60,539 nucleotides of DNA, from assembly GCA_964593375.1 (NCBI GenBank), contig CAZQIF010000004.1, forward strand, positions 1 to 60,539. The letters are read 5' to 3'. The notes under the pieces were generated by a model. The model made no database searches and was not told the DNA's origin. It saw nothing but the letters and a program-made list of their open reading frames with translations. The stretch is from an uncultured Candidatus Saccharibacteria bacterium (lineage in GTDB: Bacteria > Patescibacteriota > Minisyncoccia > Phycocordibacterales > UBA918). Shown in pieces: positions 24,801-49,059 of the stretch (the first letter of the stretch is position 1; every line of letters begins with the position of its first letter). Position numbers and translations under genes: made by a program.

Positions 24801-27800
24801 CAGCATCAGTAGTCTTAAGCCACGCCCCGACGGTGTAGCTTGTCACGTTACTTTGCGTGTAGGTGGTATCAATATTTTGATTTGTTCCATTAAGTAAGAG
24901 GCTACCGTCAATCTGTCCCGCTGTTTGTGCTGGTGAGTTAACGTGCGTTCCATTATTCCCTGATGGTGAAGAATCGGCAGGATTTGTTCCCGTTGCTTCC
25001 TTCATGTGATAGATTCCCTTGAAATAGTTACTGCCTCCATCATTCCATGTACCGGTAATATTCCACTGGTCACTCGCACTTGAATTACCATAATAGAGGT
25101 ACAACTCCGTGTCGGTGGTTGTTGCGAGAACAGGTACTTGTACCCATGCCACTAATTCCCCCGTTGTTGAAGAGTACTTTTCAAGCTCATGTGACAACTT
25201 CGTGGTTCCGTCAGATGAGGTAAAGAGGAAATCTCCACCATTTGATTTACCGACATTGCCACCGCTTCCGGTGTACTTGAAGTTTGTATTTGTGGTATTC
25301 ACGAGTACGGGGAAATTGACGAGAGTTGACGTCGATGTACTCGCGACTTTCGTGTGATCAATCGTTATTTTCTTTCGGTATGACCAACCGATATCGTACC
25401 AATTTGCACCGCCACTCGACGTTGATGTGGCAACAACGAAGGATTGTGCATCGAGAATTGATAGATTTCTATCAGCACGCATACTTGGCCCAACCGTCCA
25501 TCCACCCGATGCACTGTTAAAGTCAACATCGTAGAATGACGAACCTCCTGGACTTACTACATTCCCGAGTGCGGTCGAATCAAAGATGACCTTACCATTT
25601 GAATGCACAAATGAACCGGTATTTGTCCAACTTCCCTCAACGGTAAAGAGACCACTGTTACTCCCCACAAGCACACCATTTGGTCTAATGTATACACTGC
25701 CAACCACATCAAGTGCGGTGTTATACGTATTGAAGTTAACCGTTGTAGGATTTGTACTACCTATCGTCAAATTATTTTGCACCACAATACCAAGACCAGT
25801 CGCGGTGTAGGTTGGTACTCCACCAAATGCATCGAAGTTTAAATTATAGTAACTCGTACCGAGCACGCTTGCATCGAGTGTGCCACTATATTGCACGGTG
25901 CTCGTCCCCTTGAGGAAGGTTCCATTCACTACAAAGACCGTACCCGAGCCACGGAGATTCCAACCGGAACCTCCCGCATTAAGATAGTGCGCACTCGAAA
26001 CAGTAAGTTTGCCAAGTACCGTTGTAGTTGCATTAGTGGCAGGTGTCGTAGTACCCACATTAACTGAATTTCCAAGAACCAAGTTACCAAAAGTCCACGC
26101 AGTCGTACCGCCAAGTGTGTTTGTTTGTTCAATCGTCGTTGTTCCGCTACCGAGGGAGACTGTACCATTTCCAGAGAATGAACCGTATGGGAGTGTGATA
26201 TTACCCGTACCGGTAACCGTACCTGTTGCCACATCAATATTCCCCTGTGCACGAATATTTCCGTTTATATTCCAACCACCATTTGCACCGGTAAACTGCA
26301 AATTATTGAATGAAATTTCTTGCCCAGTAGTTGTTGTGATAGTTTTTCCTGACGTCGTCGCATTCATAATCACTGTTGTTGAAGCTGAAGTGAATGTTGC
26401 ACCTACATCCATAGTGAAACTTCCACCGATTGTATAGGTAGACGTCGCCGACCCTGTAAAGGTTGCATTGTCATCGATATGGAGTGAGCCATCCTGACTC
26501 GTACCACTTGCGTTTCCGTTAATCGTTATATTGCCCCCTGGCGCAAATGTGGTACTCGACGCGATATGAAGCTCGGTATTGAATGGAAGCACGAGCGTGT
26601 TCGTCGTTCCCGTCGCTGCGGTAAATGAAATATCAGAATCATCACTATTATCGACTCTTGCCATGTCAGCAATGGTGAGTGGAAGCACATCTTGGTGCTT
26701 GGTGATGACGCGGTTCGCATAAATATTATGATTCGTGATATTTGCAGTTGGTGTCTTAGTGACTACCACACCCTTTTGCCCACCATTCGTATTGAGGTAC
26801 GTCGTTAAGGTCACATCCCCAACTACGGGAACATTAATACTATATGCACCGTTTAATGAAGCACACCACGTTGATGTTGCAGTACCAGGATTAATGATAA
26901 CGGTGACATTTGGTGTCACACCATTGCAGGTCGATGAACCCATAGTAGTGACACCATCGTCACTATAGACAGTACCCGAGAGGGTAATTAAGAGCGTACT
27001 ATCATCCCAACGTATATATCCTGGGTTTCCTCCGGGATCGACGTCATATGCTTCACCAGAGAGTGCCCCGGTATGCTCCCAGAACCTCCAATACGAAGTT
27101 GATGTTCCGACTGCGGTGACGTTCGTACCGCTACTCAGTGGAATCAGTTCTTCGGTACCCCATGACCCGTGTGCTGGTTCAGTTCCTTTGAATTTTCTCA
27201 CGAATACCCAATCGTAGTCTACGTAACTACCATAGTGGTTCTGAAGTGAGATTTGACCTGGAGAAGAATATGTTGCATCGCTACAACTCTTCATGAGTGT
27301 TCCGTTTCGATAGATTTTAAAATCAGAGGTTGAGGCAGTTACATCATAGATGTACCACACATCAGCAGTTGGTCGGTTAGTATCCACCGTACAACTCCCC
27401 AAGAAATTCCAACCACTATATGGTGGTCTGAGGAAGGACTGTCCCTGACCAGCACGCTGGTCAACACGGGCCTGATACCCTCTCTGAGGAACTGTTGTTG
27501 TTGCACTGCCACGGAATGCGACCGAACCGATACCGTCTGTCGCATTACGCGCTTTATACCCAATCGCGTTGTTGGTAAATCCGTTATAGGTCGGATTAGA
27601 ACCGAGTGAGGTGAATCCATAGTTACCACTCGTGATTCCACCACCGTTACGTACATAGGTTGGTGATGTTGTTGTTGAAATTTGTGGATATACACCGGTA
27701 ATGACTTCTCGCTGCCAACGTGAAAGGTCGACCGTAAAGTCATCAAAGAATAGGAAGGTTGCGTCACCATGCGCTCGCTCAGAAGCCAAGTACGGATATG

Positions 27801-30800
27801 ATGCTCCGGTATTTCCGTAGTACACGTAAATGCTTTGATTGGTCGTACTGAGGTCAGCGGGTATTTCTACCCACACTTCAGCAACGGTTGAACTTGTAGA
27901 CGACGCAACCCAATAGTCAATAGTTGTAGTGCCATTACTTGATGTAAACCGAACATCACCGAAATCAGTCTTTGCATTACTATTAAGATACACATGGGTA
28001 CCACTATCGGTACCAGCACCATAGTGAAGTGTTATCTTCATTTGGTAGTTTGTTCCAGCACCCGCAGCTGCGGTCAGTGTGTGAGATTTTCGGTAACTCC
28101 AACCTGCAAGCCAATCTGAAGGTGTTGAAGTTGACAGCGTGGTTGAGAAGTTCACTCGGTAAATTGGAAGAGCTGGGTTCTTATCAATCGTTGTTGAAGA
28201 AACCGTCATCGCGGTTCCGCTCGCTGCCGATACTTCAAAATCTCCATTTGCGAGTGACGCAATTGTTGTTGAACCGGTGAGGTTAAATCCAGTCGCATTC
28301 ATACCTTTGAACTGATAGTACTGTGCGTTCACCGTTGCAGAGGAAGCAGTAATGCCATAATACCCAGTTGATATCTTGTTTATCGATGTGGTTGCAGTCG
28401 ATGTACCAATAATTTGAAGTACCGTTCCGGTAGCAAAGGTCGCAGATGCGCCCGCATCAAAGCGAACATTAACTGGTCGTGAGGTTGATGCACCATCAAA
28501 GTCAGTTGCAGAACTCCAATACTCTGTTCCTGAGGTACGGACATAATTTCCAAAAATGTAGAGATACCCATCTGCACCGTTATGATCTTGTGAGTATAGT
28601 GAGCTCGTTGCTTGAATCGCGTATGTATCTGATGTTGAGTTCCACATCTGAATATTCGTGTTCGGCTTAATCTGAAGTACTCCATACGAATCACCACCCG
28701 TGTATTTCGAGTTGATGCTGTAGTTCCCTGCCTCAAGAGAAAGTATTGACGTTGTCGCCCATGTGGTCGATGCTCCACCGACTCTATTTTGGAATATGCC
28801 ACCCACAGAAAGTATGAGCCCGTCTCCGAGTGTAAATAGGGATGATGTCGCAAGGGTGAAATTGTTTGTCGTAGTGGCATTTCCGATAATCGTCCAACCT
28901 CCCGTGACACTATTAAATGTAACGTTATAGAGACTCGAGGCACCTGTACTGATTGTCTTACCACTCGATGTTGCATTGAAAAGCAAAGTACCACCATTCG
29001 GAGTAACCGTTGCCGTATTAGTAAAGGAACCTCCAATCGTCGTTGTTCCGCTCGGGAACGTGGTCGTTCCACTCGTGAGTGTGATATTACCAAGAGCGGT
29101 AATATTGGTATCAACAAAGGATTGTTCCCCGGTCCCTGCAAAATGCATTGAATAGAACGAGGAGTTGGTATCAATGACTTTGGTAGATGCTGACGTGAAT
29201 TTAACCGTACCCGTATTGTGATTAAAGCTACCTCCTGAATTGGTAAAGTTACCCACAACGGTAAGCGTATTACTTGGGAATGTGACTGTTCCCTGCGTAA
29301 TCGTCAAATCATTTGAGGTTGTGGCACTACTGTCATTAAACACCCAGCTTCCACTTCCACTGAAACGAAGGTTCCAAAATGCATTTTCAAATGGTGTACC
29401 ACTCGCCGTAATAGTTTCTGCACTTCCTGAATTAAAGAGTACGGTCGCTGCATTATTTGCAAATGTACCTCCAGCACTATTCCATGAACCAGTCACCGTA
29501 GTCGTTCCGGTCGGCATCGTCACGGTACCCGTTGCAATCGTAATATCATTACTAATGAGCAAATCTGCTTCACTAAAGAACCATGAGCCGACACCAGTGA
29601 AGTTCATGTTATAGAAATTATCTCCACCAGCAGTGATGGTATGGTTGGTGCTTGTTGCAGCAAAGTATACGGTACCCGCTCGTGCATCAAAGTTGTTTGG
29701 GCTCGCGTTAAGGTCGGTCCACTCACGCATCACCGTAATATTAAATGGGGTCGCCGAAACGTCGAAAATATCATCTGCACCAATAAGAAGCGACTGTGCG
29801 AGCACATGACCAGAGAGCAAAACTGTTTTTGAACCACCATCGATAACAACCCGACCAACGTTTTGAAGTGTTGGATTACCATCGGACCAATTCGATGTTC
29901 CCGTACCGTCGAATGTCGTGGTGCCGATACCTGTCCATATTCCGTTTGTGCTATTTACCAGATTTCCCGCAACCGTAATTGAAGTTGTACCTCGTGCAAA
30001 TGTTCCTCGTGTGACAGTAAGGTTTCCATTTACATCGAGTGTGGTAGCTGGTGTCCATGTTGCATTCCCCGTTGTTGTGCCAAAACTAAGATTGTAGAAC
30101 GAAGGAGCAAAAGCACCTGTTTCATCAATAGTTTCTGATGTTGATGTCGCAGTAAATACTACGTTCGAAGTTCCTGCGGTGGTCGTCGCATTATTATCCC
30201 AAGAACGACTGACATACATGGTATATGTGCCAAGATTGAGTGTTCCATTGTTTTCAATATTTGGAAGATTTACAGTGTCAGTGAGTGCAAAGGTTGAACT
30301 TGCCATAATATAGAGTTCCGCATTCGCACAACCAACATCAACACAGAGTGAAAGCGCCGTACCTGTTCCATTGAAGAAGAGGTCTTCATCTTGTGTGTAA
30401 TCGTAGTATCCAATATCCGCGTTCGTAAACGGTGTGGTCGTTGCATCATTTGAACCGAGCGTAACATGCTGTTCAAAAAGCTTAATGCCTTCCATGTTCC
30501 CCACACCATCGTAGCGTGCAATCGCAGCAGCTTCGTTTGTATCAGAAGCATTACTCATAAAGAACGTGAGAATATCTCCTGGAGAAGCGTTGACGTTTGA
30601 AATGGACCAAGTGCCCGCATTTACGCTACCAGTCTTGCCAACCTGGAGCACACCATTTACCGCTACTGCAACGGTTCCCGTAGAGACATTGGTTGACTGG
30701 TTAAACTGTTGAACGGTTCCTGATGCAGTAATACCCGCTGACCACGTCAGTGTCCAATCACTGAGAACTGGGCAAGAGGCGCCACAGGTCATGTTTGCTA

Positions 30801-31485
30801 CCGGGCGAAGGTATCTATACGTTGAAGCAGGGAGAACATTAGTGAGATTGATTGGACTCGTTGTCGTGCCCACATCGTTTCCAGGAATGAGTAGGTTTGG
30901 AACAAGTTCCCAAGAACTACCGTTGAAATATTCAACTTGATACAAAATCGATGAACCTCCTGATTCTGTATCGGTCCACGACATCTGTTGCCAATACGGT
31001 CCAGAACCTGCATAGAAATCAATCGCTGGGTCACCCACCACTGTAGCGGTGATTACCGGATTTTTAGGCGCTATCATAAGTGGCTCTTTGTATGGCGTTA
31101 CTCCTGATGCACCGTCTGTCTCAAGTGTTTGAAGTGTGCTCCACAGAGCAGTCGAACTATTCCAGTATGCGTAATCGTATCGGTCGGTCGTTGATGCATA
31201 TGATGCTACCTGAATCAAATTGTCGTTTGTTCTGCGCATCTGAATACGTGGTGAAGGGCCGAATGTCGAAACACGTGCAGCGGTAGACCATGCTGCTCCA
31301 GTCCACACTTGATACGCCATTGCTGTAGTCGTTGCGTACGTGACCATAATGTTTCCATCACGTGCACCACCCACCTCAAACGCACAGTCAACCGGTCGGT
31401 CATTGTAAATCGTTGCCACCGTGTTGTCCCATGTCGTATAGAGCTCAGCTTGACCAACCCATGCACCACCGTTCCAGCGCACCAC
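18877..31485 (-). CDS. Giant extracellular protein (4202 aa) with DUF2341-like and LamG-like modules and beta-helix-like pseudo-repeats; possibly the downstream part of one larger gene
   Basis: The ORF begins at GTG 31485, in the same frame as 31510..37965. Three W-[SK]-[YK]-R-K...Y-[VLM]-Y-Y-G-N modules lie at ~27780..28105, ~25085..25395 and ~20830..21100. A LamG-like block lies at ~24340..25030 (GQIDGSLLLNGTNQNIDT..WHYIVGTW..KIYIDGAL..GTVDEVRMA). There are three copies each of YSQDH.G..G.L.I[FY]G.Y..T.GT[ED]YW..ATDFDG and GE[AG][YF]D[IV]D...W-D-[DN]-S. Many ~60-aa GT-rich pseudo-repeats are present. Confidence 0.85.
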   Translation of the reverse strand: MVRWNGGAWVGQAELYTTWDNTVATIYNDRPVDCAFEVGGARDGNIMVTYATTTAMAYQVWTGAAWSTAARVSTFGPSPRIQMRRTNDNLIQVASYASTTDRYDYAYWNSSTALWSTLQTLETDGASGVTPYKEPLMIAPKNPVITATVVGDPAIDFYAGSGPYWQQMSWTDTESGGSSILYQVEYFNGSSWELVPNLLIPGNDVGTTTSPINLTNVLPASTYRYLRPVANMTCGASCPVLSDWTLTWSAGITASGTVQQFNQSTNVSTGTVAVAVNGVLQVGKTGSVNAGTWSISNVNASPGDILTFFMSNASDTNEAAAIARYDGVGNMEGIKLFEQHVTLGSNDATTTPFTNADIGYYDYTQDEDLFFNGTGTALSLCVDVGCANAELYIMASSTFALTDTVNLPNIENNGTLNLGTYTMYVSRSWDNNATTTAGTSNVVFTATSTSETIDETGAFAPSFYNLSFGTTTGNATWTPATTLDVNGNLTVTRGTFARGTTSITVAGNLVNSTNGIWTGIGTTTFDGTGTSNWSDGNPTLQNVGRVVIDGGSKTVLLSGHVLAQSLLIGADDIFDVSATPFNITVMREWTDLNASPNNFDARAGTVYFAATSTNHTITAGGDNFYNMNFTGVGSWFFSEADLLISNDITIATGTVTMPTGTTTVTGSWNSAGGTFANNAATVLFNSGSAETITASGTPFENAFWNLRFSGSGSWVFNDSSATTSNDLTITQGTVTFPSNTLTVVGNFTNSGGSFNHNTGTVKFTSASTKVIDTNSSFYSMHFAGTGEQSFVDTNITALGNITLTSGTTTFPSGTTTIGGSFTNTATVTPNGGTLLFNATSSGKTISTGASSLYNVTFNSVTGGWTIIGNATTTNNFTLATSSLFTLGDGLILSVGGIFQNRVGGASTTWATTSILSLEAGNYSINSKYTGGDSYGVLQIKPNTNIQMWNSTSDTYAIQATSSLYSQDHNGADGYLYIFGNYVRTSGTEYWSSATDFDGASTSRPVNVRFDAGASATFATGTVLQIIGTSTATTSINKISTGYYGITASSATVNAQYYQFKGMNATGFNLTGSTTIASLANGDFEVSAASGTAMTVSSTTIDKNPALPIYRVNFSTTLSTSTPSDWLAGWSYRKSHTLTAAAGAGTNYQMKITLHYGAGTDSGTHVYLNSNAKTDFGDVRFTSSNGTTTIDYWVASSTSSTVAEVWVEIPADLSTTNQSIYVYYGNTGASYPYLASERAHGDATFLFFDDFTVDLSRWQREVITGVYPQISTTTSPTYVRNGGGITSGNYGFTSLGSNPTYNGFTNNAIGYKARNATDGIGSVAFRGSATTTVPQRGYQARVDQRAGQGQSFLRPPYSGWNFLGSCTVDTNRPTADVWYIYDVTASTSDFKIYRNGTLMKSCSDATYSSPGQISLQNHYGSYVDYDWVFVRKFKGTEPAHGSWGTEELIPLSSGTNVTAVGTSTSYWRFWEHTGALSGEAYDVDPGGNPGYIRWDDSTLLITLSGTVYSDDGVTTMGSSTCNGVTPNVTVIINPGTATSTWCASLNGAYSINVPVVGDVTLTTYLNTNGGQKGVVVTKTPTANITNHNIYANRVITKHQDVLPLTIADMARVDNSDDSDISFTAATGTTNTLVLPFNTELHIASSTTFAPGGNITINGNASGTSQDGSLHIDDNATFTGSATSTYTIGGSFTMDVGATFTSASTTVIMNATTSGKTITTTTGQEISFNNLQFTGANGGWNINGNIRAQGNIDVATGTVTGTGNITLPYGSFSGNGTVSLGSGTTTIEQTNTLGGTTAWTFGNLVLGNSVNVGTTTPATNATTTVLGKLTVSSAHYLNAGGSGWNLRGSGTVFVVNGTFLKGTSTVQYSGTLDASVLGTSYYNLNFDAFGGVPTYTATGLGIVVQNNLTIGSTNPTTVNFNTYNTALDVVGSVYIRPNGVLVGSNSGLFTVEGSWTNTGSFVHSNGKVIFDSTALGNVVSPGGSSFYDVDFNSASGGWTVGPSMRADRNLSILDAQSFVVATSTSSGGANWYDIGWSYRKKITIDHTKVASTSTSTLVNFPVLVNTTNTNFKYTGSGGNVGKSNGGDFLFTSSDGTTKLSHELEKYSSTTGELVAWVQVPVLATTTDTELYLYYGNSSASDQWNITGTWNDGGSNYFKGIYHMKEATGTNPADSSPSGNNGTHVNSPAQTAGQIDGSLLLNGTNQNIDTTYTQSNVTSYTVGAWLKTTDAGISKTIVQNRGGGAGMSLTLGIGQTGGGHGTAGQVGFEVDSNTIDIGISSVQTVHDGNWHYIVGTWSAATGTAVNPSQFKIYIDGALAATTSGSTGSATSPLTGLGGAKIGRHDLWATNLAGTVDEVRMATVVRSSDWIKTEYNNQSAPASFYTLGSEDTTGSVIEVRGTFNNAVLDSHTTWTGATLYINSGTTQTINVKSSGGDVYDTLRVGANTHVRMWNSSSGTTSPTTTGSVYSQDHAGTNGALYIYGGYTNTSGTDYWNYATDFDGTILTPGNERKVTVSFASSTNALYTGGGLSVIGDPTASTTLQNQGVGAYGLRIGGTASTTMNYYEVRNTNVSGIVFSGTPTVVSLSYGDFIVSQASGTAITVGGTALQTRNFTNNYFATSSGATPAFNVTATGTTLNSWKFTNHSGGLAGEGYDIDPGPSAGDPGYIVWDNSSTSLSVSGRVFTAEGTGTSTACDGSNDIKLVVGGVTQYVTSCNASTAVYTFTNVSFNLGDSFIVYIDGKAVKASTVSEDSVSTISNFDLYENRVIVRHEGVDPISIADMALWDSSDDPGDIPFTAVDGGSDTLTLPLNTKLIVWGDKTFRPGGNVTVSGGGAGAAYDGTVELYANAVFDATGSETHTIGGSLISGTGASIDDETSTFIFTTTGAARTIDTNEYALYNMTLNGSGSWTVTNSALDVPNDLTITQGALTLPTGTTTIGGSLSNTGGSFAQNGGHMRFTSSAAETIRTGGSNFGTTTFAGSGSWTYLDTNATSTGNFTILSGSVTSASGTLTLSKNFVNAGTFTHNSGTLRFIATTSSTTVRANGSDLSSTTFAGLSNFVFTDTNVALRGAISIQQGTVTLATGTMSIAGSFLNTGGAFNHASGTILFNSTDTGESINPGSSLFNIVSIAAPTGGYTITNSATTTGNFSLTSASSFTLASSTTLTVGGVFTNLVGGGNTTWSGSTLKINSGVPYTVNSASQGGDAYNLLIVSNNTDLRMWNSSATTTMGDSQSSLYSQDHGGVNGELNIYGNYERTTGTDYWSYATDFDGTSLTGIERAVNVRVASGATTTFSGGLLQMIGASNGTTTMTNQGVGTYSMNVTGGTLYALNYAMRNMDTNGLSLSGTTTITTISNGDYELAVSGGSLITVSSTTLNYNATQVISGMRFATTTAITGTNIKLTGTTGSAWTLTSHRGNLAGEAFDIDGGDACGSIQWDDSACLLTRQSAYRWRNDDGGEGVPDSEWYDTNWSKRKRVKITNSDVTTYTNAVIEIPVTWDSDMQNDFDDLRFTTQGGTTSIDFVREKYATSTSATVWVEVPSLAASADTEIYMYYGNGGATYAGNGTSTFAAYDDFEYASIATYYSGYTSLFTTSGSFAYQGSYGLKAVSPTDRTEFGGIYRPSATTSRGQTIRYFEYIDTGAGSGDEICTLFGVQNPGSSNQNYGVCLELLDTDRVSLVQDAIDNDTNVLTTVLSSTTISYTTGWYEVEVRWATTSIGVSVFKNDVLVATTSATDSSYTSGRIGFGFWFQSGGWDFYTARPLLATEPTTTTGFEQVRGGASWMAAKNVKASGVQTGTVVRPRFVIENTGFSVNDQYRLMYAPKGVSPSCESVGAGSYAAVPVQSSCGTSPICMQASSLTNQASTTDIIGGRGTFTYGQTIEENSNVTQSLTLGSNVYTEVEYAIAATINASSSNYCLKVNDDATSLDSYMRVAELELLFVPNITSVSLNGGNNIILLPGVTTTIYATGTVSDLNGYTDLDINRATTTIYRSGVTDACSRDNNNCYIASGPTQCSFNNCNMFTNSCDISCSADIYYFADPTDTFSPYDGETWRATLSISDMGGSIATGSAPSIDLTTMRAISVDNSISYPPLEVYGNSGSTNPTTTITNIGNIALDLSLEGTDLTDGISSYIPVTNQKFATSSFTYGGCGLACKQLSSTTPVSLEADLGKPTSTSTPIVDELFWGIQISYPASSREHRGTNMFTAVLD

Positions 31486-31509
31486 GCCAATATCTCTATC
31501 TTGGTCGAT

Positions 31510-34500
31510 TTAACAGAGAATCAATTTGTCGGTTCCCACATCGCGCGCAATATACCCTGCTTCAAAATCATCACCAATTGCTACCGTAGCAGCTGCTGTC
31601 CATGTTGCACCACCCCATGAACGCCAAGAATAGTTGTTTGTCGTTGCACCGTTAGATACTGCCACAATTGCCTGCCCCCCACTGTACTCATACTCAGCTG
31701 CAATACCTTCGTGGTTTGTTTCGGTATTTTGCATAGAACCCCATACTGCTGAGTTACCCCAAGCAGAACCATTCCATACGCGCGCTTCATAGGCAATACC
31801 GCCCGTGTCTCTCGTTACTGCAATAATCTCATCTGAGCCCGATGCAGGATCCGAAATGAGCTTAACCCAACCACAGGTATTTCCTCCCGTAAGACCGATA
31901 CCTCCGCCGTTCGTCCATGTGGTACCATCCCAGATATAGTAAATTGGATCCGCATTACCATCGCATGAGACTATCATTGCATCACCCGATGTCTGTTCAT
32001 AGGCAACATCAAAACCACGCATAGCCGTATTTGGGATTGAGGTGACAATTTCTTTACGACTACTGCTACTATTCTCCCACTCACCGTTTCGATACACCTG
32101 CACATTCACATCAGCATCAGTTCCCATCGTTGCAAGAATATACTCACCTTCTCGTGGAGCTGCTCTTGTTACTATCCATGTGATCGGAGCATACACGTCG
32201 AGTGCGTTTGCTTCAGCACTCCATGCAGTACCGTCCCATACTCGGTATCGAGGTGTCGTAATATTTCCTTCTGCATATGCTATAAGACTTTCGAGTGACG
32301 TTGATGCGACCGTAATCGAAGTGGTGGATACTGCCAAAGTTCCAGAAAGTGCATCGGTATTAAACTGATCAACAGTTGTTTGGAACCATGTTGAGACGGT
32401 CACAGTGGTATCAACCGTGATACTTTCAGCATCGGTATAGAAGGAGTATTGCTGACTTCCATTTGGATCAATTGCGCGTACGCGCCACCAATATGTACGC
32501 AAGTTAACGAGTGCATCCGCTGGTTGAATTTTATACTGAATCGTGTGACCAGAAGTAAATGGGGTGGTGTCGCCTCCATTCGTGATATTCACGAACCCTG
32601 CGCTCGTTGATGAAACGCGTGTGGTCGAAGCAGTAAACGCAGATGTGGTTGACCACTGAAATTCATATACTAAATCATCATTTTGCGGGTCGGTGGTAGT
32701 AAATTCAAAGGTTGGCGTTGTGGTCCCAACTTTTTCATTCGGGAATGGCATATTCGTTGTTGGCGTAGGGATGCGGTAGCCCCACGTTACCGTCCAGTCG
32801 GAAAGCTTTGGATTACTTGCGCCTCCGGCAAAAATACCGAGAATGCGAATGATGCGGTACGTAGTAACATCAACTGAAAGCAGACTTATTGAAGAAGTTC
32901 CAAATCCTGCACTATTTCCTGAGAGACTCGTGTCAGGGATGAATACCCAACTTGAAAGCTCATCATCATAGTATTGGAGACGATATCTAAGCGTGTTCGT
33001 TGCTGTTTCGGTATCACTCCATGCAAGTGACCCCCACGCATTACCCACCGTTCCCCACGTGAAGTCTATTGCAGATGAGGTGGTTGTACCGGTTGTAGAA
33101 CCCGATGCGAGTTGTACCACGTCAGTCGTAAGTGCGTCAGTGTTGAGGTGAGTTCCTGTATCGAACTGTTCCTCCATTGTTTGGAACCAGGTTGATAGGA
33201 CGGTAGTTGTTCCTATCGTAAAGCTTCGCACTTCAGACCAAATGCCAAATGTATTCGAACCACCATTCGTGACCGCAGTTGGGTCAATTGCCTGCACGCG
33301 CCAGTAGTACGTTAGACCATCAGTGAGTACCGTCGTCGGTGAAAAACGAATAGTATCACCCGGAGCATACGGGTTTTTACCTGACGAATTGGTAACATCT
33401 GAAAATAGTGCTTTATCAGAGGTCGAAGCAGAATTCTTCTCGATATTTATAGAACCAAAATTACGGTCATCGTCGATTTGAATGTGGTAGCTCAAATTAT
33501 TTCCCTCAGCATCACTCCCCGTAAATTCAAATTTTGGTGTTGTGGTCCCAACCTTTTCGTTATCAAAAAGTTTCATGAGTGTTGGTGCATCAGGAGCTTG
33601 ATTTGTCACGAGAAGTGGATACTCAGTGTAGGTAAAGAGTGGTGTGTCATCAGATTCAACCATACGGAAGCAGTAGTTGGCCCCCGGTTCTGCATTATTT
33701 TGTTTAATGACAAAATCCCATTCGCCATCTTGTGCGATACCAACGGCGTTCGGCATCGTGACCGACGGATTAAATTCCTCGTAAGAACCGAAAATATCAG
33801 AGCCGGTAAGCGTCGTACTTGAGAGTGTAGCTCCATCAGCGACACTCCCATTATCATGCCCAATCCATGCCGTCGACGAAGCAGCTCCGCCCACATCAGT
33901 CCACGAGGTCACCGTGGTGCAGACTGCTGACGTGGTGCCAAACTGCAACTTAAAACTCTCACCTGTGGATGTTGAGTTTGAGTTGTTGAGCTGTATGCGG
34001 AGTCGCACGACCTCACCACTTTTTATCGGAGTGAGCGATGGGTCAATTGGAGTATTTTCATCGATGTTCTCCTCAACACCAGCTGGCCACGGATCAGTTG
34101 GAGTAAGCAAATCTTCGTTTGCATAAAAACGGTAGGCAAACTGATTGTAGACAGGAACGAGACCATAATATTTTGCAAAGATAACGGTCACCGATGGAGG
34201 GGTATTTGATGCAGTCGAGAAATTACTGAAGTCAACAATGTGCTTATGTGTACTTGGAACACCTACACGCGTTGCATTCCATCGTCCATTCGTACTTGCG
34301 CTCGAGCTACTCGTTGTCGCACTCATGATGTCGTGCGTGTGGGTTTCGCTCCCTCCGGTTGTGCCATACGTTGCACTTCCCTTTATATAGCGGTCATAGA
34401 ATGGGTCTCCTGCTTGTGCAGAACGGTTGAGCCAACCCGCCGGAGGAGTGTCGCTCCACATGGCGATTGCATTGATTGGCGTTGCGGTAGCAACAGAAGA

Positions 34501-37500
34501 TGAAGCAAAAATAACTTCAATGTATGGTGGTTCAGAACTTGCAGGAATTGTTGAAGAACTAATGGTATGAGTGTGTGCTTCTATCGCCGGAAGTGGTGAT
34601 GCGAGTGGGTTACCACCTCCTGCAGTTCTGTTACGTACCGGAGTTCCTGCTGCTGCACTCGTCGTACCAATGAGACTGTGTATGTGCGTATTCGTACTAC
34701 TGCTCACAATAGCGTTTTGACCCATTGGATAGCGTGCATCAAGAGGAGTGTACCGCGCCCATCCACTCGGAAGGGTCGTATCAAACATGAAAATTGCGCC
34801 TGCGGGTGTGGTCGACGGAATACCTGAGTTGATGTGTTGAATAACGCGGAGTGAACGATACGCTGGAAGCGTTGTGGTACTTCCGATTGCGAGTGTAACT
34901 GAATCGTGTGAGTGAGAAACTCGGTCAGCCCCCGTTACACCTCCCGATTCTGATACTGCTGGGTAAATATTTGTATCAACAGCATTAACTGTTGTACTCG
35001 CGGTGTGCGTGGTCGTTGCCACACCTCCCGTTGTTCCGTATGTAGCACCACCCTTTGGGAATCGGTTGTAGAAAGTACTTGTCGAAACACACGAGATACA
35101 GAACCAGCTACCTGGGATACTTGCGCCATCAGCCCAAAATACAATCATGCTTCCCGCTGCGTCTGATGCAATTTGCCATCTTCGGTGTTCAGTAAATGCT
35201 TTTGGTGTTGTCGGTGTCCCTGCGGTCTCAATAACAGGTGCTGGAACAACTTCATTCACTGGAGTGTCTGTGGTAGTAGTTTCAGTTGTCGACGAACCTT
35301 CACCGAGGGGTGTGGTGTCTGTCGTTTCAACTGTCTCAACATCCAGAATTACTTCTTCAACTGGTGCTGATGTCTCTACAACAGGCTCTTCAACCGTACT
35401 CGTTTCTTCTGTAGAAACTACGGGTGTTTCTGGCGTAACAACCTCTGCAGTATCTGCTTCTGGAACAACTTCCGGAGCTTGAATAGAAGTCTCAGGTGTC
35501 GGTTCTGTAACTGTTTCGTCGGTAACTGTTTCAATTGGTGTCGTAATGCTTTCCTGAAGCATCACCTCAGGTGTCGCTGGCAAAACTTCATTAATTATGA
35601 TTCCTGCTTCACCACTTGTAATTTCTGCTGGGCCGAGATTGTAGAGGAACGGCGAAATATCGGGAGCATCAAACGAGTAAGAGAACGTTTGTGATGAGCC
35701 TGGAGCGAGTTCAAAATTCCAAGTGAGTTCAAATTCATCGCCCGCTCGCGTAATGATTGCATTAGTTTCATTCACCGTGAAATCAGCAGGAACACGCTCC
35801 ACAAGTTTGCCAGCAAAAGCAGTCTTACTCGTCACGGTAAGTTGCATTGGGTACATTGAAGGTGGATAAATACGTGTCGGTCCACTTCGACTTATGAAGA
35901 TATTGTGAGTATCCTTTACCACAAAGGTGTCACTCGTGTGCGCAAGAACAATTCCATTTTGGTCGAGCCTTTCAACATACATTTCGTATGTACCCGTCGC
36001 TTCTGGCGTAAATTGTGCAAGATAGTCAGGGCGGTCAACCACGTTATTTCCGTTACAGAGTCCTGATGGCGAAACGGGAACTCGGGAAATAAATTCAAGT
36101 GGGTCGATGATGTAGAGATTGAGGTTTGCATCACAGAGTGTATTACCGTTTTGTGAAAGTGCGCCAAATGCAATGGTTGCAGTATCACCAATTTCATATT
36201 CAGTTTGATTTGGGTTGATGGCGAGCATTCCCCATTGGAAGTCAAACGTATCAGAAAATGTTTTTCCTCCCTCAGTAATCGTGAGCTCCACGATGTACGT
36301 CCCTGGTTGCAGTTTTTCGCGATCGGCATCCGAAAGTTGAATGGTCCACAACCCATCTGCAGTCATATCAATTTGCGGTGTCACATCGATGATTCCCTCA
36401 TCCTTTCGAATAAACTCCACGGAAGCTATCGTTGCGAGATTTGATGAGAAGATACTGCGGAAGAATTGTACAAAGCCATTGCGCTGAGATTCATAGCGAA
36501 GCACAAACATTGGATCTTCGGTTCGGGTGAAGTCGAGTTCTGTACTGATAAGCTCATGAATGCTCGGAAGTGTAAGGAATGGAAGTTGCTCGGGAAGCAG
36601 TCGCTCTTCGAGAAGCGTACGGTCATAGGTTTCGGTTGCGAGTTCAAGCCATACCGAATCGAGATATAACCCAGTGAGATTTTCAGTATCGCCCTGATAT
36701 GAAATTCGTACCTGCAATTTTTCAAGTGAAGCCACATCAGGAAGCAGTGGGAGCGCAAAAAGGAAATATCCACCATTGAGTGCGTTTGATACTTCGCTCT
36801 CCATTACCACAGAACCTGCATTCATCCATTCACCATCGGTTTTATATTCAATTTCAAGTGATGGCAGTGGCGCACCTTCTTGAACTTCATACTGTGCTCC
36901 GAGTGACATGCGCAACTGCGCATTGGTAATAAACTGCCCTGATTCAAGTTTTGGAAGCGCAAAATCAGAGAGTGTGATTGGATAAGAAATAACGGTTACT
37001 TCATCTGCTTGTGGTGCTACTTCAGAATCAACAACAGGTACTAATACCTCCTCCTCTTCTTCTTGAATTATTTCTGTAGTAGGTTCTTCAACAACACTCG
37101 CTTCTTCAGTTGGAGAAAATTCAGGAGAAGATGTAACTGGTTCTGTAGCAGTATCTGATAATTCAGCTTCAATGACTGGTTCGACAACAGTCTCGTTTAC
37201 AAATGGCAACAATGTTACTGCGCGTTCAAAAAATGCAAATATTCCACTACTGTTTTCATTCTGACTTACTGTTTCAATTTCTGCAGGAGGAGTAATTGGT
37301 TCTTCAACACTCTCCACCTCAACATCCTGAGACTGAGTCTCTGCAGAACTTGCATTATTATCTTCTTCTTGAATGACTGCATCTATATTTTCAAGGGGTG
37401 TGGTCTCAGCTTCAGACGAAGGTGAATCATTTCCTGTGCCTTCTGTATTAGTTACATCCTCATTTGATTCAGATTGTGATTCTACAGAATCAGTACTTGG

Positions 37501-37965
37501 AGTTTCAGTATTCTGATTTAAAGAAGTATCGAGATACGCAGAATTCGATTTATTGAATGATTGATAAATGCCATCTTCATCAATATTTTGTTCAGAAATA
37601 GCATCCGTATTCTTCCAATTTTCGTTCTGAACATTTCCAGGGAATACATGAAGTGTGTCAAGTTTTCTTGTGAGTTCAAGATTAGATTCAGCGCTCGAAG
37701 AGAACAGGAATACAGAAACAAACATTAGTCCATATAGCAAAACAAATGCTTTTCTTTTTGCTGGAGTGAGTCGTGTAAATCTGCTTCTTACAGGTAATCT
37801 GTTTATGGATTCACTAAGAAGACTACATACACTATCAAATCGCCATGAAACAAATTCTAGCGCTTTAAATATGGATATTCTATTTTTCTTCTTAGTTTTT
37901 TGAGAGAAAAATCTCATCAACTCTACACACAGGCACACCACTCTATTAGAGTGGGGGCCAATCAT
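31510..37965 (-). CDS. Giant membrane-anchored extracellular protein (2151 aa): acidic stalks, tail-collar-like units, FN3-like units, C-terminal W-x-G-x-x-W repeats
   Basis: Probable start is M17 at nt 37917 (MRFFSQKTKKKN). TM KAFVLLYGLMFVSVFLFSSSA. E/T/V/S-rich segments. Units with P.GW...[RD]..[FY]..G.ATYGTTGG..THT lie at ~34150..35140. EKVGTTTP[KT]FEFT...Y[YW]WRV[QR]AIDP occurs twice. The C-terminus carries repeats RVWDGTAW / YIWDGTTW / RVWNGSAW / RSWGGATW. The ORF ends at TAA 31512..31510. Confidence 0.85.
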   Translation of the reverse strand: MIGPHSNRVVCLCVELMRFFSQKTKKKNRISIFKALEFVSWRFDSVCSLLSESINRLPVRSRFTRLTPAKRKAFVLLYGLMFVSVFLFSSSAESNLELTRKLDTLHVFPGNVQNENWKNTDAISEQNIDEDGIYQSFNKSNSAYLDTSLNQNTETPSTDSVESQSESNEDVTNTEGTGNDSPSSEAETTPLENIDAVIQEEDNNASSAETQSQDVEVESVEEPITPPAEIETVSQNENSSGIFAFFERAVTLLPFVNETVVEPVIEAELSDTATEPVTSSPEFSPTEEASVVEEPTTEIIQEEEEEVLVPVVDSEVAPQADEVTVISYPITLSDFALPKLESGQFITNAQLRMSLGAQYEVQEGAPLPSLEIEYKTDGEWMNAGSVVMESEVSNALNGGYFLFALPLLPDVASLEKLQVRISYQGDTENLTGLYLDSVWLELATETYDRTLLEERLLPEQLPFLTLPSIHELISTELDFTRTEDPMFVLRYESQRNGFVQFFRSIFSSNLATIASVEFIRKDEGIIDVTPQIDMTADGLWTIQLSDADREKLQPGTYIVELTITEGGKTFSDTFDFQWGMLAINPNQTEYEIGDTATIAFGALSQNGNTLCDANLNLYIIDPLEFISRVPVSPSGLCNGNNVVDRPDYLAQFTPEATGTYEMYVERLDQNGIVLAHTSDTFVVKDTHNIFISRSGPTRIYPPSMYPMQLTVTSKTAFAGKLVERVPADFTVNETNAIITRAGDEFELTWNFELAPGSSQTFSYSFDAPDISPFLYNLGPAEITSGEAGIIINEVLPATPEVMLQESITTPIETVTDETVTEPTPETSIQAPEVVPEADTAEVVTPETPVVSTEETSTVEEPVVETSAPVEEVILDVETVETTDTTPLGEGSSTTETTTTDTPVNEVVPAPVIETAGTPTTPKAFTEHRRWQIASDAAGSMIVFWADGASIPGSWFCISCVSTSTFYNRFPKGGATYGTTGGVATTTHTASTTVNAVDTNIYPAVSESGGVTGADRVSHSHDSVTLAIGSTTTLPAYRSLRVIQHINSGIPSTTPAGAIFMFDTTLPSGWARYTPLDARYPMGQNAIVSSSTNTHIHSLIGTTSAAAGTPVRNRTAGGGNPLASPLPAIEAHTHTISSSTIPASSEPPYIEVIFASSSVATATPINAIAMWSDTPPAGWLNRSAQAGDPFYDRYIKGSATYGTTGGSETHTHDIMSATTSSSSASTNGRWNATRVGVPSTHKHIVDFSNFSTASNTPPSVTVIFAKYYGLVPVYNQFAYRFYANEDLLTPTDPWPAGVEENIDENTPIDPSLTPIKSGEVVRLRIQLNNSNSTSTGESFKLQFGTTSAVCTTVTSWTDVGGAASSTAWIGHDNGSVADGATLSSTTLTGSDIFGSYEEFNPSVTMPNAVGIAQDGEWDFVIKQNNAEPGANYCFRMVESDDTPLFTYTEYPLLVTNQAPDAPTLMKLFDNEKVGTTTPKFEFTGSDAEGNNLSYHIQIDDDRNFGSINIEKNSASTSDKALFSDVTNSSGKNPYAPGDTIRFSPTTVLTDGLTYYWRVQAIDPTAVTNGGSNTFGIWSEVRSFTIGTTTVLSTWFQTMEEQFDTGTHLNTDALTTDVVQLASGSTTGTTTSSAIDFTWGTVGNAWGSLAWSDTETATNTLRYRLQYYDDELSSWVFIPDTSLSGNSAGFGTSSISLLSVDVTTYRIIRILGIFAGGASNPKLSDWTVTWGYRIPTPTTNMPFPNEKVGTTTPTFEFTTTDPQNDDLVYEFQWSTTSAFTASTTRVSSTSAGFVNITNGGDTTPFTSGHTIQYKIQPADALVNLRTYWWRVRAIDPNGSQQYSFYTDAESITVDTTVTVSTWFQTTVDQFNTDALSGTLAVSTTSITVASTSLESLIAYAEGNITTPRYRVWDGTAWSAEANALDVYAPITWIVTRAAPREGEYILATMGTDADVNVQVYRNGEWENSSSSRKEIVTSIPNTAMRGFDVAYEQTSGDAMIVSCDGNADPIYYIWDGTTWTNGGGIGLTGGNTCGWVKLISDPASGSDEIIAVTRDTGGIAYEARVWNGSAWGNSAVWGSMQNTETNHEGIAAEYEYSGGQAIVAVSNGATTNNYSWRSWGGATWTAAATVAIGDDFEAGYIARDVGTDKLILC

Positions 37966-38487: not shown

Positions 38488-40014
38488 TCACTTGAGAATC
38501 TTATTGACGTCACTAATCTCTTTTTCAATGAGTGTTTCAGAGACCTCGAGTGCCTGGTTGAGGCCTTCAACGGCTTCCCTTTCTTTCTTCGAAAGTCTTT
38601 GCTTCTTGGTAATCATATTAATTTGGTCGTAGATTTCATCACGGAGTGCTGAGAATATCTTTTCCATTTGGTCCTGAATTTCTTTTGTCTCTTTTCGAAG
38701 TTTGTGCTCTCGCTGTTCGTGCTGTTTCTTCATGTAGAACATGTACATGAACTGTCCGATGAGTCCAAGAAGCAAGAGAATGATGAAGAGGTTCTTTCCT
38801 TTGAAGATATCCCAGAATGAACTTTGGTCAACAACTGCTGCCGCTGGGTGCCAACCTGACGTAATAAGTACAGGCACCGTTGCTTCTGTTTTATTACCGG
38901 CAAAGTCAACCGCAACAACCTTTACGGTGTAGGTACCATCTTCAAGATTTTTGAGCATGTACCCAAGCTTTGCCTCATCGGGTGTTACCTCAAACATTTC
39001 ACCGTCTGCAATAGTCATCTCATACTTCTCTATACCTGATGTATCATCGTTCGCTTCAAAGGTAAGGAGCGGGAAGGCGGTTGGTGTGTTACCTGCACGG
39101 ACATTAATCGTGAATGGGCGTGGTGATTCGGTGTCAATCTTAATCATGCGGTGAAGCACACCTCCCCATCCAACCTGATTCTTGAATTGAAGTGTAAGAT
39201 ACTGAACACCCTCTAGGAGGACTCCTTCATTTGTTGAAAAGTCTTCTATCGGTGGGTCATACTTTGTCACCGGTGTTGCGTCAGCTGATGTTGCGATATC
39301 AAGTGCCACCTCAGTCACATCAAACGGGAGTGTCCACGTAAATACACCTATTTTTGTTGCATACCAAAGCTCAGGGTCAAGGAATGTGGTGGAGCCCGCT
39401 TCAGGCGCTCGAGGTGGGTCACCAAATGTAATTGCAGCATCGGTCGGCTTCTCTTCTTCTGGTTTAGGTGTTTCCTCTTCTACAGGTTCTGTTGGCTTCG
39501 TTTCAGGAATTGAAGCAGCACCAATGGTATATGAAGCAGGGGTGGTATTCGTATATACGTCAGTCCCAAGACCATCTGCAGCAAGCACAGAAGCAGAAGC
39601 AACAGAGACGTTACCAGTACCTTCTGCAAGTGCCTTTAAGGTCACCGTAATAAGTGTTGAACGTGAAGTGAATGGTGTTGGACTTCCTCCACCAAAATCA
39701 ATAGTGCCAGCTGCGTTAGAAAATGTTGGTTCTGTTGTCCAAAGTGAAAATACTGAGCCCGTTTTAGAAACGCTTATGACTGAAAGCTTTGTATTATCAA
39801 AAGAAAGTTTTGCCTCAACCGCATTAACACTTTTGGCTTGAGGATCTACTTGCACCGTTACCGTAAACGACTGTCCATTCGAATACGTACCCGTTGAAGG
39901 TGAAAAGTTGAGTTGTGCAGCATGTGAAATTCCATAGACACCAAAAAACCAAACACTAAGTGTGGTAAGGATTAGAATTTTTAGGATGTGCTTTAAATGA
40001 ACTGAAAGAACCAT
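38488..40014 (-). CDS. Type-I membrane cohesin protein (signal peptide, cohesin, Ig-like domains, TM helix, cytoplasmic coiled coil); paralogue of 5314..7041
   Basis: 508 aa. Cohesin block: LNFSPSTGTYSNGQSFTVTVQVDPQAKSVNAVEAKLSFDNTKLSVISVSKTGSVFSLWTTEPTFSNAAGTIDFGGGSP..VLAADGLGTDVYT. TM: LFIILLLLGLIGQFMYMFY. K/E-rich C-terminal tail. Confidence 0.8.
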   Translation of the reverse strand: MVLSVHLKHILKILILTTLSVWFFGVYGISHAAQLNFSPSTGTYSNGQSFTVTVQVDPQAKSVNAVEAKLSFDNTKLSVISVSKTGSVFSLWTTEPTFSNAAGTIDFGGGSPTPFTSRSTLITVTLKALAEGTGNVSVASASVLAADGLGTDVYTNTTPASYTIGAASIPETKPTEPVEEETPKPEEEKPTDAAITFGDPPRAPEAGSTTFLDPELWYATKIGVFTWTLPFDVTEVALDIATSADATPVTKYDPPIEDFSTNEGVLLEGVQYLTLQFKNQVGWGGVLHRMIKIDTESPRPFTINVRAGNTPTAFPLLTFEANDDTSGIEKYEMTIADGEMFEVTPDEAKLGYMLKNLEDGTYTVKVVAVDFAGNKTEATVPVLITSGWHPAAAVVDQSSFWDIFKGKNLFIILLLLGLIGQFMYMFYMKKQHEQREHKLRKETKEIQDQMEKIFSALRDEIYDQINMITKKQRLSKKEREAVEGLNQALEVSETLIEKEISDVNKILK

Positions 40015-40492: not shown

Positions 40493-40557
40493 ACTGAAAC
40501 ATTATACGTTATCGCGCAAAGTTTTTTTTGAGAGTTATACACAAACGTAAGTTTGTT

Positions 40558-40790: not shown

Positions 40791-42656
40791 TTAGCCCGTC
40801 CAATTGAATATCATGATAGAGAAGTCCGTCAGTGACACCTTGCCGTCTTGGTTGATGTCAGCTGGTGGGTTTGAGTTCCCTCCTGCGGTATTCCACCAGA
40901 AAAGCATAATAGAAAAGTCTATAAGGTTAACCTTAGTATCACGGTTGAGGTCTGAAGTCTGAGGACCTTTTGCCTGTTCACCAACACCATAATAGGTGAA
41001 ATCTGAGAAGTTTGTGGTGACACCAAGCTCTTGCTTCGCCTTTGCTCTCACTTTGTATGTTCCAGTCTTAAATCCTTCGGTACTTACGTCAATAGTCCAC
41101 GCCCCGTTTCCATCAGAAGTCGTAGTAAAGGTCTTTAGTGTCGCGCTTGATTTATCGTTTTGGTTTTCAATCGTGATTGTTGCGTCAGGAACTGCATATC
41201 CAGAGAATGTAACCGTCGTGTTTGGGTCAACCGGATTTGGCGTGACTTTAATTGATGGCATGACATTTACGTTTGAGAGTGTCGACCCTCTCGCTCCCGT
41301 GACTGAGAATGTGGTTGAGTAGGTACTCGATTTGATATTGTTTCGGTCAATTGCATATACTCCAAAGGTATACACACCACGGGCGATTGCATCAATCGTC
41401 ACTGAAAAGCTACCGTCGGCAGCAGCGTTGCTGTTTTCAGCAAGCTGACCATCAACGAGAATATAGACCGTACTTCGAGGAAACGCATAACCATTTATGA
41501 TGACACGACCATCGCCACTTTGATATGGCTGTACTGTTCCTTCAAATCCACCGCTATCTGTTCCACTATCTCCAGAAGTTCCACCACCTCCACCACCACC
41601 TCCACCACCACCTCCACCACCACCAGAAGTTGAACCACCTGAATTACCTCCAGATGAACCATCTCCCGAACCACTACCACCGGTTCCTGTCCCTCCACCC
41701 TGTCCCTCTCCCTCATTTGAACCATCATCTCCGGGGATTCCTGTTGGGTATTCTGGGACTGTGAATGATATAGCATAGTCGTCTTGGTTTATGTTGCCTT
41801 CATCGTCAGTACAACGTACGTACACGGTATACGTAGTGTTTGTAGCAACATCAATTTCATCTGGGTGAATCGTTTTATATCCGTTGGTAAATTGAATTCC
41901 CATGGAAGCATATGGTGTTCCGGAAGCATAGCTGTATCGACACTTTGCAAACTCATCGGTTTCAAGCGATATCTGAACACGAAGTGTTGTTCCTGAAATA
42001 GTGCCCGAAGGTGCCCCATTAAAACGAAATGGGGGATCTGTTTCTCGCGTGTCAATGTTCGGGACTTCAACTGATTCAATAATCGCAACATGACCCTTAA
42101 CCCGTTCACTCGTCGCACCCCCTCCCGTCTCAATAAAAAAATCATGTGTGCCTGTTGCTACTGGATTAAGAATGCCACTATCGGTAACCGTTGCATTACT
42201 CGTGTGCTTGCCCGCAAGAAGTCGCACATATGCATTCGCGGGAATACCGATAGTTGAATTTAAAATTACTTCAATGTTTCCTGATGTTCCTGTTGTGATA
42301 TTAATTCCATCGTCGGTTGCATCAGCGGTGGTTGTAGCTGAACGTACCTGAAACCCTGATGATGTTGAAACGAATAATTGCACATTGTCGATATCGAAAT
42401 CAAGAGCGGGAATTGTAAAATCATTTGGTGCCGGAACGAATCGAACATACCCACCAGGTGGTATCGGCACCGTCGTCTTAAATTCAATTGTATGGTTAGA
42501 GGAATCACCTGGGCCAGAATCTGAAAGCGTATCTTTATACTCACGAACCGTTGCAGCGTATGCATTCGCAGACATTAAAAGTAATACACAAACAAAAAAC
42601 AGCTTGAGTACACTCCGTACTGTTTTTATACGTAAAAACTGACCCAATACATGCAT
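40791..42656 (-). CDS. Secreted protein: conserved DTLSDS..SNH.IEF N-module, poly-Gly/Ser linker, Ig-like domains, C-terminal dockerin
   Basis: 621 aa. Signal LKLFFVCVLLLMSANAYA. N-module YKDTLSDSGPGDSSNHTIEFKTT. G-rich linker including a run of ~15 Gly. Dockerin: SDLNRDTKVNLIDFSIMLFWW...ADINQDGKVSLTDFSIMIFNWTG. Confidence 0.8.
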   Translation of the reverse strand: MHVLGQFLRIKTVRSVLKLFFVCVLLLMSANAYAATVREYKDTLSDSGPGDSSNHTIEFKTTVPIPPGGYVRFVPAPNDFTIPALDFDIDNVQLFVSTSSGFQVRSATTTADATDDGINITTGTSGNIEVILNSTIGIPANAYVRLLAGKHTSNATVTDSGILNPVATGTHDFFIETGGGATSERVKGHVAIIESVEVPNIDTRETDPPFRFNGAPSGTISGTTLRVQISLETDEFAKCRYSYASGTPYASMGIQFTNGYKTIHPDEIDVATNTTYTVYVRCTDDEGNINQDDYAISFTVPEYPTGIPGDDGSNEGEGQGGGTGTGGSGSGDGSSGGNSGGSTSGGGGGGGGGGGGGGGTSGDSGTDSGGFEGTVQPYQSGDGRVIINGYAFPRSTVYILVDGQLAENSNAAADGSFSVTIDAIARGVYTFGVYAIDRNNIKSSTYSTTFSVTGARGSTLSNVNVMPSIKVTPNPVDPNTTVTFSGYAVPDATITIENQNDKSSATLKTFTTTSDGNGAWTIDVSTEGFKTGTYKVRAKAKQELGVTTNFSDFTYYGVGEQAKGPQTSDLNRDTKVNLIDFSIMLFWWNTAGGNSNPPADINQDGKVSLTDFSIMIFNWTG

Positions 42657-43799: not shown

Positions 43800-43825
43800 A
43801 AATACAGTATACCCCTACCTCTTCG

Positions 43826-49024: not shown

Positions 49025-49059
49025 ACATAAAGTATACCTGAATAAACATCTAAAATTTT

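Follow-up and report, generated by a model that had tools for sequence, protein, structure and literature searches.

A giant predicted surface-protein gene of an uncultured Patescibacteria lineage carries one in-frame TAA at a codon that is open in all 84 homologous loci examined

Introduction

On the reverse strand of the window, the whole 60,539-nucleotide stretch of DNA analyzed here, two long ORFs of 2,151 aa (31510..37965) and 4,202 aa (18877..31485, starting at a GTG) lie one behind the other in a common frame. An earlier note on this DNA, made from the letters alone, proposed that they are one giant surface-protein gene cut by a single in-frame TAA. As possible causes it named a sequencing or assembly error, a very recent nonsense mutation or population variant, phase-variable truncation, and programmed read-through. 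Here we ask whether the locus holds one gene or two, and how the stop is best explained.

Results

Translation bore out the arrangement described earlier, in which one stop and eight sense codons separate two ORFs of the same reverse frame. The TAA (31512..31510) is the sole internal stop of a 6,362-codon frame (37965..18877), in which it occupies codon 2152; it is preceded by the residues DKLILC and followed by IDQDRDIG and then by the V of GTG 31485. All features described below lie on the reverse strand. The upstream part (31513..37965) comprises 2,151 codons from ATG 37965 and is colinear with its orthologues from residue 9-16 on. The downstream remainder (18877..31509) consists of the eight sense codons and the 4,202-codon ORF, and contains no further stop or frameshift. 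The stub length of 2,151 aa given in the earlier note holds for the frame counted from ATG 37965; to judge from the orthologues, the conserved start is probably M17 (ATG 37917, MRFFSQK), which would give a stub of 2,135 aa. No second single-stop junction between two long ORFs of a real gene was found in the window. One further single-stop junction between long ORFs is present, and it lies antisense to a gene.

The stop position was open in all 84 homologous loci that were fetched. Of the distinct loci, 42 could be aligned over practically all of the 553-residue junction query; in these, codon 2152 encodes Tyr in 36 (TAT or TAC) and Phe, Leu or Gly in two each, and it is a stop in none. The codon in this column is TAT in L001-L004 and L041, which are the five nearest distinct orthologues, as well as in the partial locus L011; TAC appears in the next closest. 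Read against this column, the change in the window is a single-base replacement of a conserved sense codon, TAT to TAA, so that the stop (31510..31512) stands in place of a Tyr codon.

The orthologues are single uninterrupted genes. The complete orthologue L003 is one ORF of 5,628 aa, with whose C-terminus the C-terminus of the downstream part aligns, and in L001, L002 and L004 the open frame runs 3,888 to 5,777 codons to the edge of the retrieved sequence, which in L001 is the edge of the contig. Single BLASTP alignments ran over codon 2152, one with L003 over window residues 9-3276 and one with L004 over 16-3276. In L085 the giant gene is called as one product of 7,240 aa; it is longer, and its junction lies past the fetched DNA. 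The gene order at that locus (dockerin, HSP20, cohesin, giant gene) is identical to that of the window, and the upstream ORFs of ~640 aa and ~515 aa were also found in relatives. Two metagenome-assembled orthologues, L013 and L015, carry frame breaks at other positions, some of which may be assembly errors. The earlier note had allowed that orthologues might consistently carry two genes at this point; none is split at the site. By this comparison the locus is one gene for a predicted N-terminally anchored surface protein of ~6,350 residues, conserved in Paceibacteria/Kaiserbacteria-type Patescibacteria.

The stop falls inside a propeller-like domain of about 390 residues (~31120..32289), recognized from alignment, the AlphaFold model of a homologue and the positions of its motifs. 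Eight W-x-G-x-x-W motifs lie at residues 1910, 1958, 2012, 2064, 2117, 2164, 2221 and 2268, with spacings of 47-57 residues; the TAA sits 12 residues ahead of the sixth motif, and the spacing over the stop is 47. The repeat thus continues through the stop with its spacing kept, as had been noticed earlier, and the region first given for it (31090..32270) was close to the measured bounds (about 32289..31120). We found 54 shorter homologues, and many of their alignments pass uninterrupted over the stop position. In the AlphaFold model of a homologue, P0004, which here represents the domain of the window protein, pLDDT exceeds 90 across most of the domain, the stop region included. Aligned onto this model, the stop corresponds to P0004 residue 404, in the middle of strand 400-406 of the sixth unit, and so lies within a folded domain and not at a domain boundary. 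A propeller complete before the stop, the contrary case considered in the earlier note, is not what the model shows; the severed unit is the sixth of eight.

The only long hydrophobic segment of the 6,362-codon frame, located by a hydrophobic-segment scan and an alignment of orthologue N-termini, spans residues 73-92 (AFVLLYGLMFVSVFLFSSSA; 37690..37749) and is presumed to be an N-terminal signal or membrane anchor. All matches to DUF2341 and Laminin_G_3 fall downstream of the stop. DUF2341 (PF10102) was found at 27712..27966 (E 1.5e-23), which outscores the other of two matching stretches in that portion of the protein, and at 20758..20988 (whole-protein E 4e-44, three stretches), and Laminin_G_3, a concanavalin A-like lectin domain (PF13385), at 24385..24891 (E 1.5e-13). 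Both families scored over their curated cut-offs (DUF2341 149 bits, cut-off 23.4; Laminin_G_3 51.6, cut-off 27.6). The giant protein is probably an adhesin that mediates attachment.

The 4,210 codons past the stop contain no second lesion, whereas 4.76 stops are expected per 1% of neutral divergence; this sets a 95% upper bound of ~0.6% on the divergence since the event, and indicates that the change is either very recent or an artefact. A relative-rate test revealed no step-up in amino-acid change past the stop in the window lineage; because the distances are large, this test rules out only an old pseudogene. Inspection of the 60.5-kb contig for other split genes found none. The 19-kb gene is free of frameshifts, and the neighboring overlapping ORF pairs each have their own signal peptide and anchor. 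The clean state of the rest of the contig counts against an error-rich assembly.

We searched for another allele from the same population. GTDB genomes, scanned for the exact pattern with the stop codon left as NNN, gave no match, nor did exact-product look-ups of the 2,151-aa ORF and of a neighboring 508-aa protein; a metagenome scan returned only a 66%-identical relative. The sole member of the neighbor protein's 90% cluster lies on a 1.9-kb Logan contig, which at 82.8% DNA identity belongs to a different species.

Taken together, we consider it probable that the TAA is a real and very recent nonsense allele, fixed or a majority variant in the sampled population. It is possible that the TAA is instead a sequencing, polishing or consensus error, the organism having TAT (Tyr) and making the full-length protein. 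Several observations are in keeping with such an error: a single base is the only flaw of a 19-kb frame, all orthologues have sense codons at the position, an artefact would equally leave the 12.6-kb downstream frame perfectly intact, and the search turned up no further assembly from this population, the neighbor gene's nearest relative being 82.8% identical in DNA. The frame breaks elsewhere in L013 and L015, if some are assembly errors, would be further instances. Against it, the change is a substitution, whereas error-prone long-read assemblies typically suffer from homopolymer indels, and no other gene of the contig appears broken. Substitution errors in a well-covered consensus would, moreover, be expected to be much rarer than real pseudogenizing mutations in a 19-kb target.

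A true two-gene arrangement, in which coupling or re-initiation at GTG 31485 would let the 4,202-aa ORF be translated on its own and its product would work with the stub, is unlikely. The GTG lies 24 nt past the stop, and the earlier note correctly saw no Shine-Dalgarno motif ahead of it. That absence carries no weight, because nearly no gene in the window has one (the motif precedes 1 of 29 ORFs); since this genome does not require it, its absence is compatible with initiation. Such a split would, however, sever a beta-strand inside a propeller unit, it has no counterpart in any orthologue, and its downstream product would contain neither a signal peptide nor a hydrophobic segment. Neither did the DNA offer a transcriptional start: no TAnnnT box was found ahead of the GTG, and the single promoter-like match in 31200..32000 is at the level of chance (1.1 expected) and lies downstream of the GTG. 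A literature search on giant genes or Shine-Dalgarno-free translation in Patescibacteria turned up nothing directly relevant.

We regard as quite improbable a tolerated or programmed read-through by a near-cognate tRNA such as tRNA-Tyr, which would yield mostly stub and some full-length protein. The fully intact downstream frame agrees with it, and Tyr is one residue that can be inserted by near-cognate decoding of UAA; as the ancestral residue is Tyr, a leak with Tyr would restore the wild-type protein. A stop absent from all the homologous loci speaks against it, as does ordinary termination at TAA, the stop codon of 14 of the other 29 ORFs in the window, the giant gene's own conserved C-terminus included. 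No signal for recoding was detected: for the 131 nt that surround and follow the stop, folding is no more stable than for shuffled sequence (z = +1.12), the stop site has no credible Rfam match, and no tRNA gene was found in the window. An alternative genetic code was rejected, TAA, TAG and TGA all being in use as normal terminators here. The stronger version, in which a real TAA is kept because it is leaky, tRNA-Tyr restoring the residue and a single codon controlling the dosage of a costly adhesin, is very doubtful. If it were true, the epibiont would mostly display the short anchored stub, with the 6,350-residue protein present at a low level that could be tuned.

Phase-variable truncation, a reversible on/off switch of the adhesin's distal part, is the least credible reading: giant surface proteins are often targets of phase variation in other bacteria, yet no tandem repeat was found in this gene, and a TAT-to-TAA substitution is reversible by back-mutation only. 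The +/-160 nt flanking the stop contain neither a simple-sequence tract nor an invertible repeat, and only a 9-nt palindrome lies there, 28 nt away.

Discussion

Of the four causes first proposed, two withstand this analysis, namely that the stop arose by recent nonsense mutation or is a variant within the population, and that it is a sequencing error; phase variation fails for want of a switching element at the site, and programmed read-through because the stop is not conserved, lacks an RNA signal and is a normal terminator here. Since all examined relatives keep the gene whole, the locus calls for an ordinary recent knockout or a base-call error and not for a new mechanism.

Under the favored reading, a recent nonsense allele, a third-position transversion would have converted the conserved Tyr codon TAT to TAA. 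Translation would then halt after residue 2151, within the sixth of the eight propeller units, in its second strand, and the product would be an anchored stub whose propeller cannot close. The distal ~4,200 residues, with the DUF2341 and LamG-type domains, would be lost. Any re-initiation at GTG 31485 would make a protein that, as the sole hydrophobic segment is N-terminal, lacks an export signal and would be unable to reach the surface.

The annotation should show one gene with an internal stop in place of two proteins, and protein catalogues should not list the 4,202-aa "protein" as a family member in its own right. Should the allele prove real, this population would be missing the distal two-thirds of a giant surface protein that is otherwise conserved, a small data point on the dispensability of such proteins in Patescibacteria. 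Beyond annotation, the stop has little significance. The eight-unit propeller domain, which is unannotated, is found in pilin-like proteins and methanogen genomes as well, and its general interest may exceed that of the stop itself.

The domain can be compared with the seven-bladed Photorhabdus lectins PLL/PHL (PDB 6rgr, 5c9o and 5mxe). These beta-propeller lectins are the top PDB matches of the P0004 model (Foldseek E ~1e-10, target TM-score 0.62-0.70), and both they and the window domain are built of Trp-rich repeats of ~50 residues. Identity is only 9-12%, however, and the window domain has eight units of two alternating types in place of seven. PLL and PHL are free lectins, whereas the window domain forms one module within a giant protein. 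Because the resemblance is one of fold, with eight units and such low identity, we did not file the domain as a member of PLL/PHL.

Systems of programmed read-through or recoding resemble this locus in that a long open frame continues past an in-frame stop. They differ in that the stop here is not conserved, is followed by no RNA element and is a normal terminator of the window; UAA is, besides, generally the least leaky stop codon.

The nearest relatives of the gene itself are the Paceibacteria/Kaiserbacteria-type orthologues (JAYSUD010000001, 5,628 aa; CAZCWH010000001, 7,240 aa), which are colinear with it at 52-57% identity over ~3,260 residues. They share the N-terminal start motif MRFFSKK and the same upstream neighbors (dockerin and cohesin, with HSP20 in L085, the only relative whose upstream genes were identified), and L003 also shares the C-terminus. 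They differ in being uninterrupted, and internal modules gained or lost make their lengths vary from 5,628 to 7,240 aa.

As an event, the change is an ordinary nonsense allele or base-call error. It is closest to the internal-stop pseudogenes and nonsense alleles of very large bacterial adhesin genes, in which one substitution likewise creates a premature stop in a domain of a gene that is intact in relatives, the downstream coding sequence is still perfect (and the change so recent), and the product is an anchored N-terminal stub. Between those cases and the allele proposed here there is no mechanistic difference; what sets this one apart is its host, an uncultured Patescibacteria lineage, and its uncharacterized gene family.

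An internal stop splits one giant reading frame

The minus-strand frame 37965..18877 translates into 6,362 codons, and its sole internal stop is codon 2152. Direct reading of the minus strand gave GGA ACC GAC AAA TTG ATT CTC TGT, followed by the TAA (31512..31510), by ATC GAC CAA GAT AGA GAT ATT GGC, and then by GTG GTG CGC TGG AAC GGT. The stop separates an upstream ORF of 2,151 aa (31510..37965, minus strand) from a GTG-initiated downstream ORF of 4,202 aa (18877..31485, minus strand) in the same frame, as the earlier note had accurately described. Nowhere else in the 60.5-kb window does a lone stop divide a real gene into long ORFs.

The gene is open in its relatives

We searched for homologs with a 553-residue query spanning the stop. 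Orthologous loci were present in both genome and metagenome collections, and the aligned stop position was open in 84 of 84 loci (3 of them re-fetches of earlier loci). Many alignments among 54 shorter homologous proteins also crossed this position without a break. The locus L003 (JAYSUD010000001) bears a complete single ORF of 5,628 aa; L001, L002, and L004 stay open for 3,888, 5,777, and 4,371 codons, respectively, each as far as the retrieved DNA extends (in L001, up to where the contig stops); and in L085, whose gene order matches that of the window (dockerin protein, HSP20, cohesin protein, giant gene), a single product of 7,240 residues is annotated for the giant gene. Single BLASTP alignments ran through codon 2152 against both L003 (window residues 9-3276, 52% identity) and L004 (residues 16-3276, 57% identity). 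In the 42 distinct loci whose alignment covers nearly the full query, the stop column holds Tyr in 36 and Phe, Leu, or Gly in 2 each. The window's TGT TAA ATC GA corresponds to TGT TAT AT[CT] GA in the closest relatives, which amounts to one T>A change at the third codon position. The giant locus is one gene in every relative, and the main interpretation offered earlier, one giant gene interrupted by an internal stop, was right.

In L013 (L013:1..7798; MHQO01000004, a Sungbacteria MAG) and L015 (L015:8600..8650; JBLIMJ010000001), the giant ortholog shifts frame elsewhere, yet is colinear with the window protein. The Acidimicrobiales label of L015 looks like a binning error. Either this gene family was disrupted independently in these two loci or the assemblies are at fault; thus, database records not infrequently show sporadic disruption of the giant gene, be it genuine or assembly-derived.

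The stop lies inside a propeller-like domain

The domain at the stop (31120..32289, minus strand) has eight W-x-G-x-x-W motifs, at residues 1910, 1958, 2012, 2064, 2117, 2164, 2221, and 2268. Their spacings range from 47 to 57, and the spacing across the stop is 47, bearing out the observation that the repeat runs through the stop with its spacing kept. Pfam models gave no match to this domain. The structure model was that of a shorter homolog, P0004, not of the window protein, and the two window halves were aligned with 26 homologs. The all-beta domain of P0004 was modeled with pLDDT >90 for most of residues 150-530, and its strands fall into eight units, with two types alternating. The best PDB matches were beta-propeller lectins, the Photorhabdus PLL/PHL family first (E ~1e-10, target TM-score 0.62-0.70), followed by AAL-type lectins and sialidases. 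In P0004, the position equivalent to the window stop is residue 404, which falls midway along strand 400-406; this strand is the second one in unit six. On this model the propeller is not closed before the stop: of the eight units, a product ending there would retain five and a half and could not close its ring.

The eight-unit domain was also found in proteins of ~500-700 aa with hydrophobic N-terminal segments (P0004-P0039; loci L045-L069, L080, and L084), several of which resemble pilins (G-F-S-x-x-E); Methanosarcinales archaea, e.g. Methanolobus and Methanomethylovorans, carry it at 30-35% identity.

Origin of the stop

Of the possible single-base changes in the downstream ORF, 3.77% create a stop, corresponding to 4.76 stops expected per 1% neutral divergence. 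No further stop or frameshift was found in the 4,210 codons downstream of the TAA, which would place the event at less than about 0.6% divergence (95% bound, substitutions alone), and younger still counting indels. A relative-rate comparison of the window with L004 (outgroup L003, 400-residue bins) did not reveal a step at the stop; every bin from 801 to 3200 gave a ratio of 1.4-1.9. With neither a second lesion nor a rate step, the disruption is very recent or not real.

We favor, with some reserve, a real recent nonsense allele. That the TAA is instead a consensus error in the deposited contig is rather unlikely: the change is a substitution, not an indel; the giant gene, at 19 kb a large mutational target, has no frameshift; and the other contig genes appear unbroken, both members of the overlapping ORF pairs bearing a signal peptide and anchor of their own. 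Genome and metagenome searches yielded no sequence from the same population.

Functional readings of the TAA share the small probability that remains. Regarding re-initiation, the lack of a Shine-Dalgarno motif before GTG 31485, pointed out in the earlier note, is true but uninformative, since only 1 of 29 window ORFs has one within 20 nt upstream of its start (background 12%). In 13 of 29 ORFs, versus a background of 14%, the start is preceded at 3-12 nt by a TAnnnT box; GTG 31485 has neither element. Across 31200..32000 there is a single promoter-like match, no more than chance would produce, and its position is downstream of this GTG. Programmed read-through was not borne out: a stop is conserved at the site in none of the 84 loci, RNA folding over 131 nt around and after the stop was no better than for shuffled sequence (z = +1.12), an RNA family search up to 1 kb on each side gave no credible match, and TAA is an ordinary terminator, closing 14 of 29 other window ORFs (TAG 11, TGA 4), with the giant gene's own conserved end among the 14. 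As all three codons are used as ORF ends, the genetic code is standard. Phase-variable truncation lacks a substrate, as there is no tandem repeat in the giant gene and no simple-sequence tract or invertible repeat at the site.

The TAnnnT box is -10-like (example upstream regions, 40493..40512, 43800..43819, and 49025..49044). These start-site counts suggest that Shine-Dalgarno motifs are scarce in this genome and that leaderless transcripts may be common.

The giant protein and its neighbors

The longest ORF starts at ATG 37965 (minus strand), and orthologs align from 'MRFFS[KQ]K', corresponding to window M17 (MRFFSQK, ATG 37917), which is probably the true start. A TATAAT box directly precedes 37965. 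The 6,362-codon frame encodes a single long hydrophobic segment, at residues 73-92, indicating that the giant protein is anchored or exported via its N-terminus; the part after the stop has no export signal of its own. DUF2341 (three stretches) and a LamG-type lectin domain lie in this distal part, whose C-terminus aligns to that of L003, the complete ortholog. Size, anchoring, lectin-like modules, and the epibiotic lifestyle of Patescibacteria lead us to infer that the protein is an attachment factor.

Large internal modules are repeated in the window protein (residues 2759-3276, 3610-4150, and 4550-5600). Their number differs between orthologs (L002, L003, L004, and L085), with totals of 5,628, ~6,350, and 7,240 aa, and a 'TVSTWFQTT' module boundary recurs ~265 residues apart in L001 and L002.

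All neighboring genes described here are on the minus strand. Two cohesin-domain and two dockerin-domain proteins are encoded at 38488..40014, 40791..42656, 5314..7041, and 10439..11611. The giant gene is immediately preceded by one cohesin/dockerin pair, and relatives conserve this order (as in L085), which hints at a cohesin-dockerin surface assembly in Patescibacteria. A Y-family (UmuC-like, IMS) DNA polymerase gene (47777..49024) lies near an S24 peptidase (UmuD/LexA-like) gene (49765..50328); in this small genome the two may form an error-prone repair pair. Two tandem paralogs (42993..43799 and 43826..44683) each encode a membrane segment at the N-terminus, together with the C-terminal portion of an FGE-sulfatase-like domain; they are separate genes rather than one split gene.

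Taken together, the finding represents a giant gene with an ordinary internal stop rather than a novel type of system.
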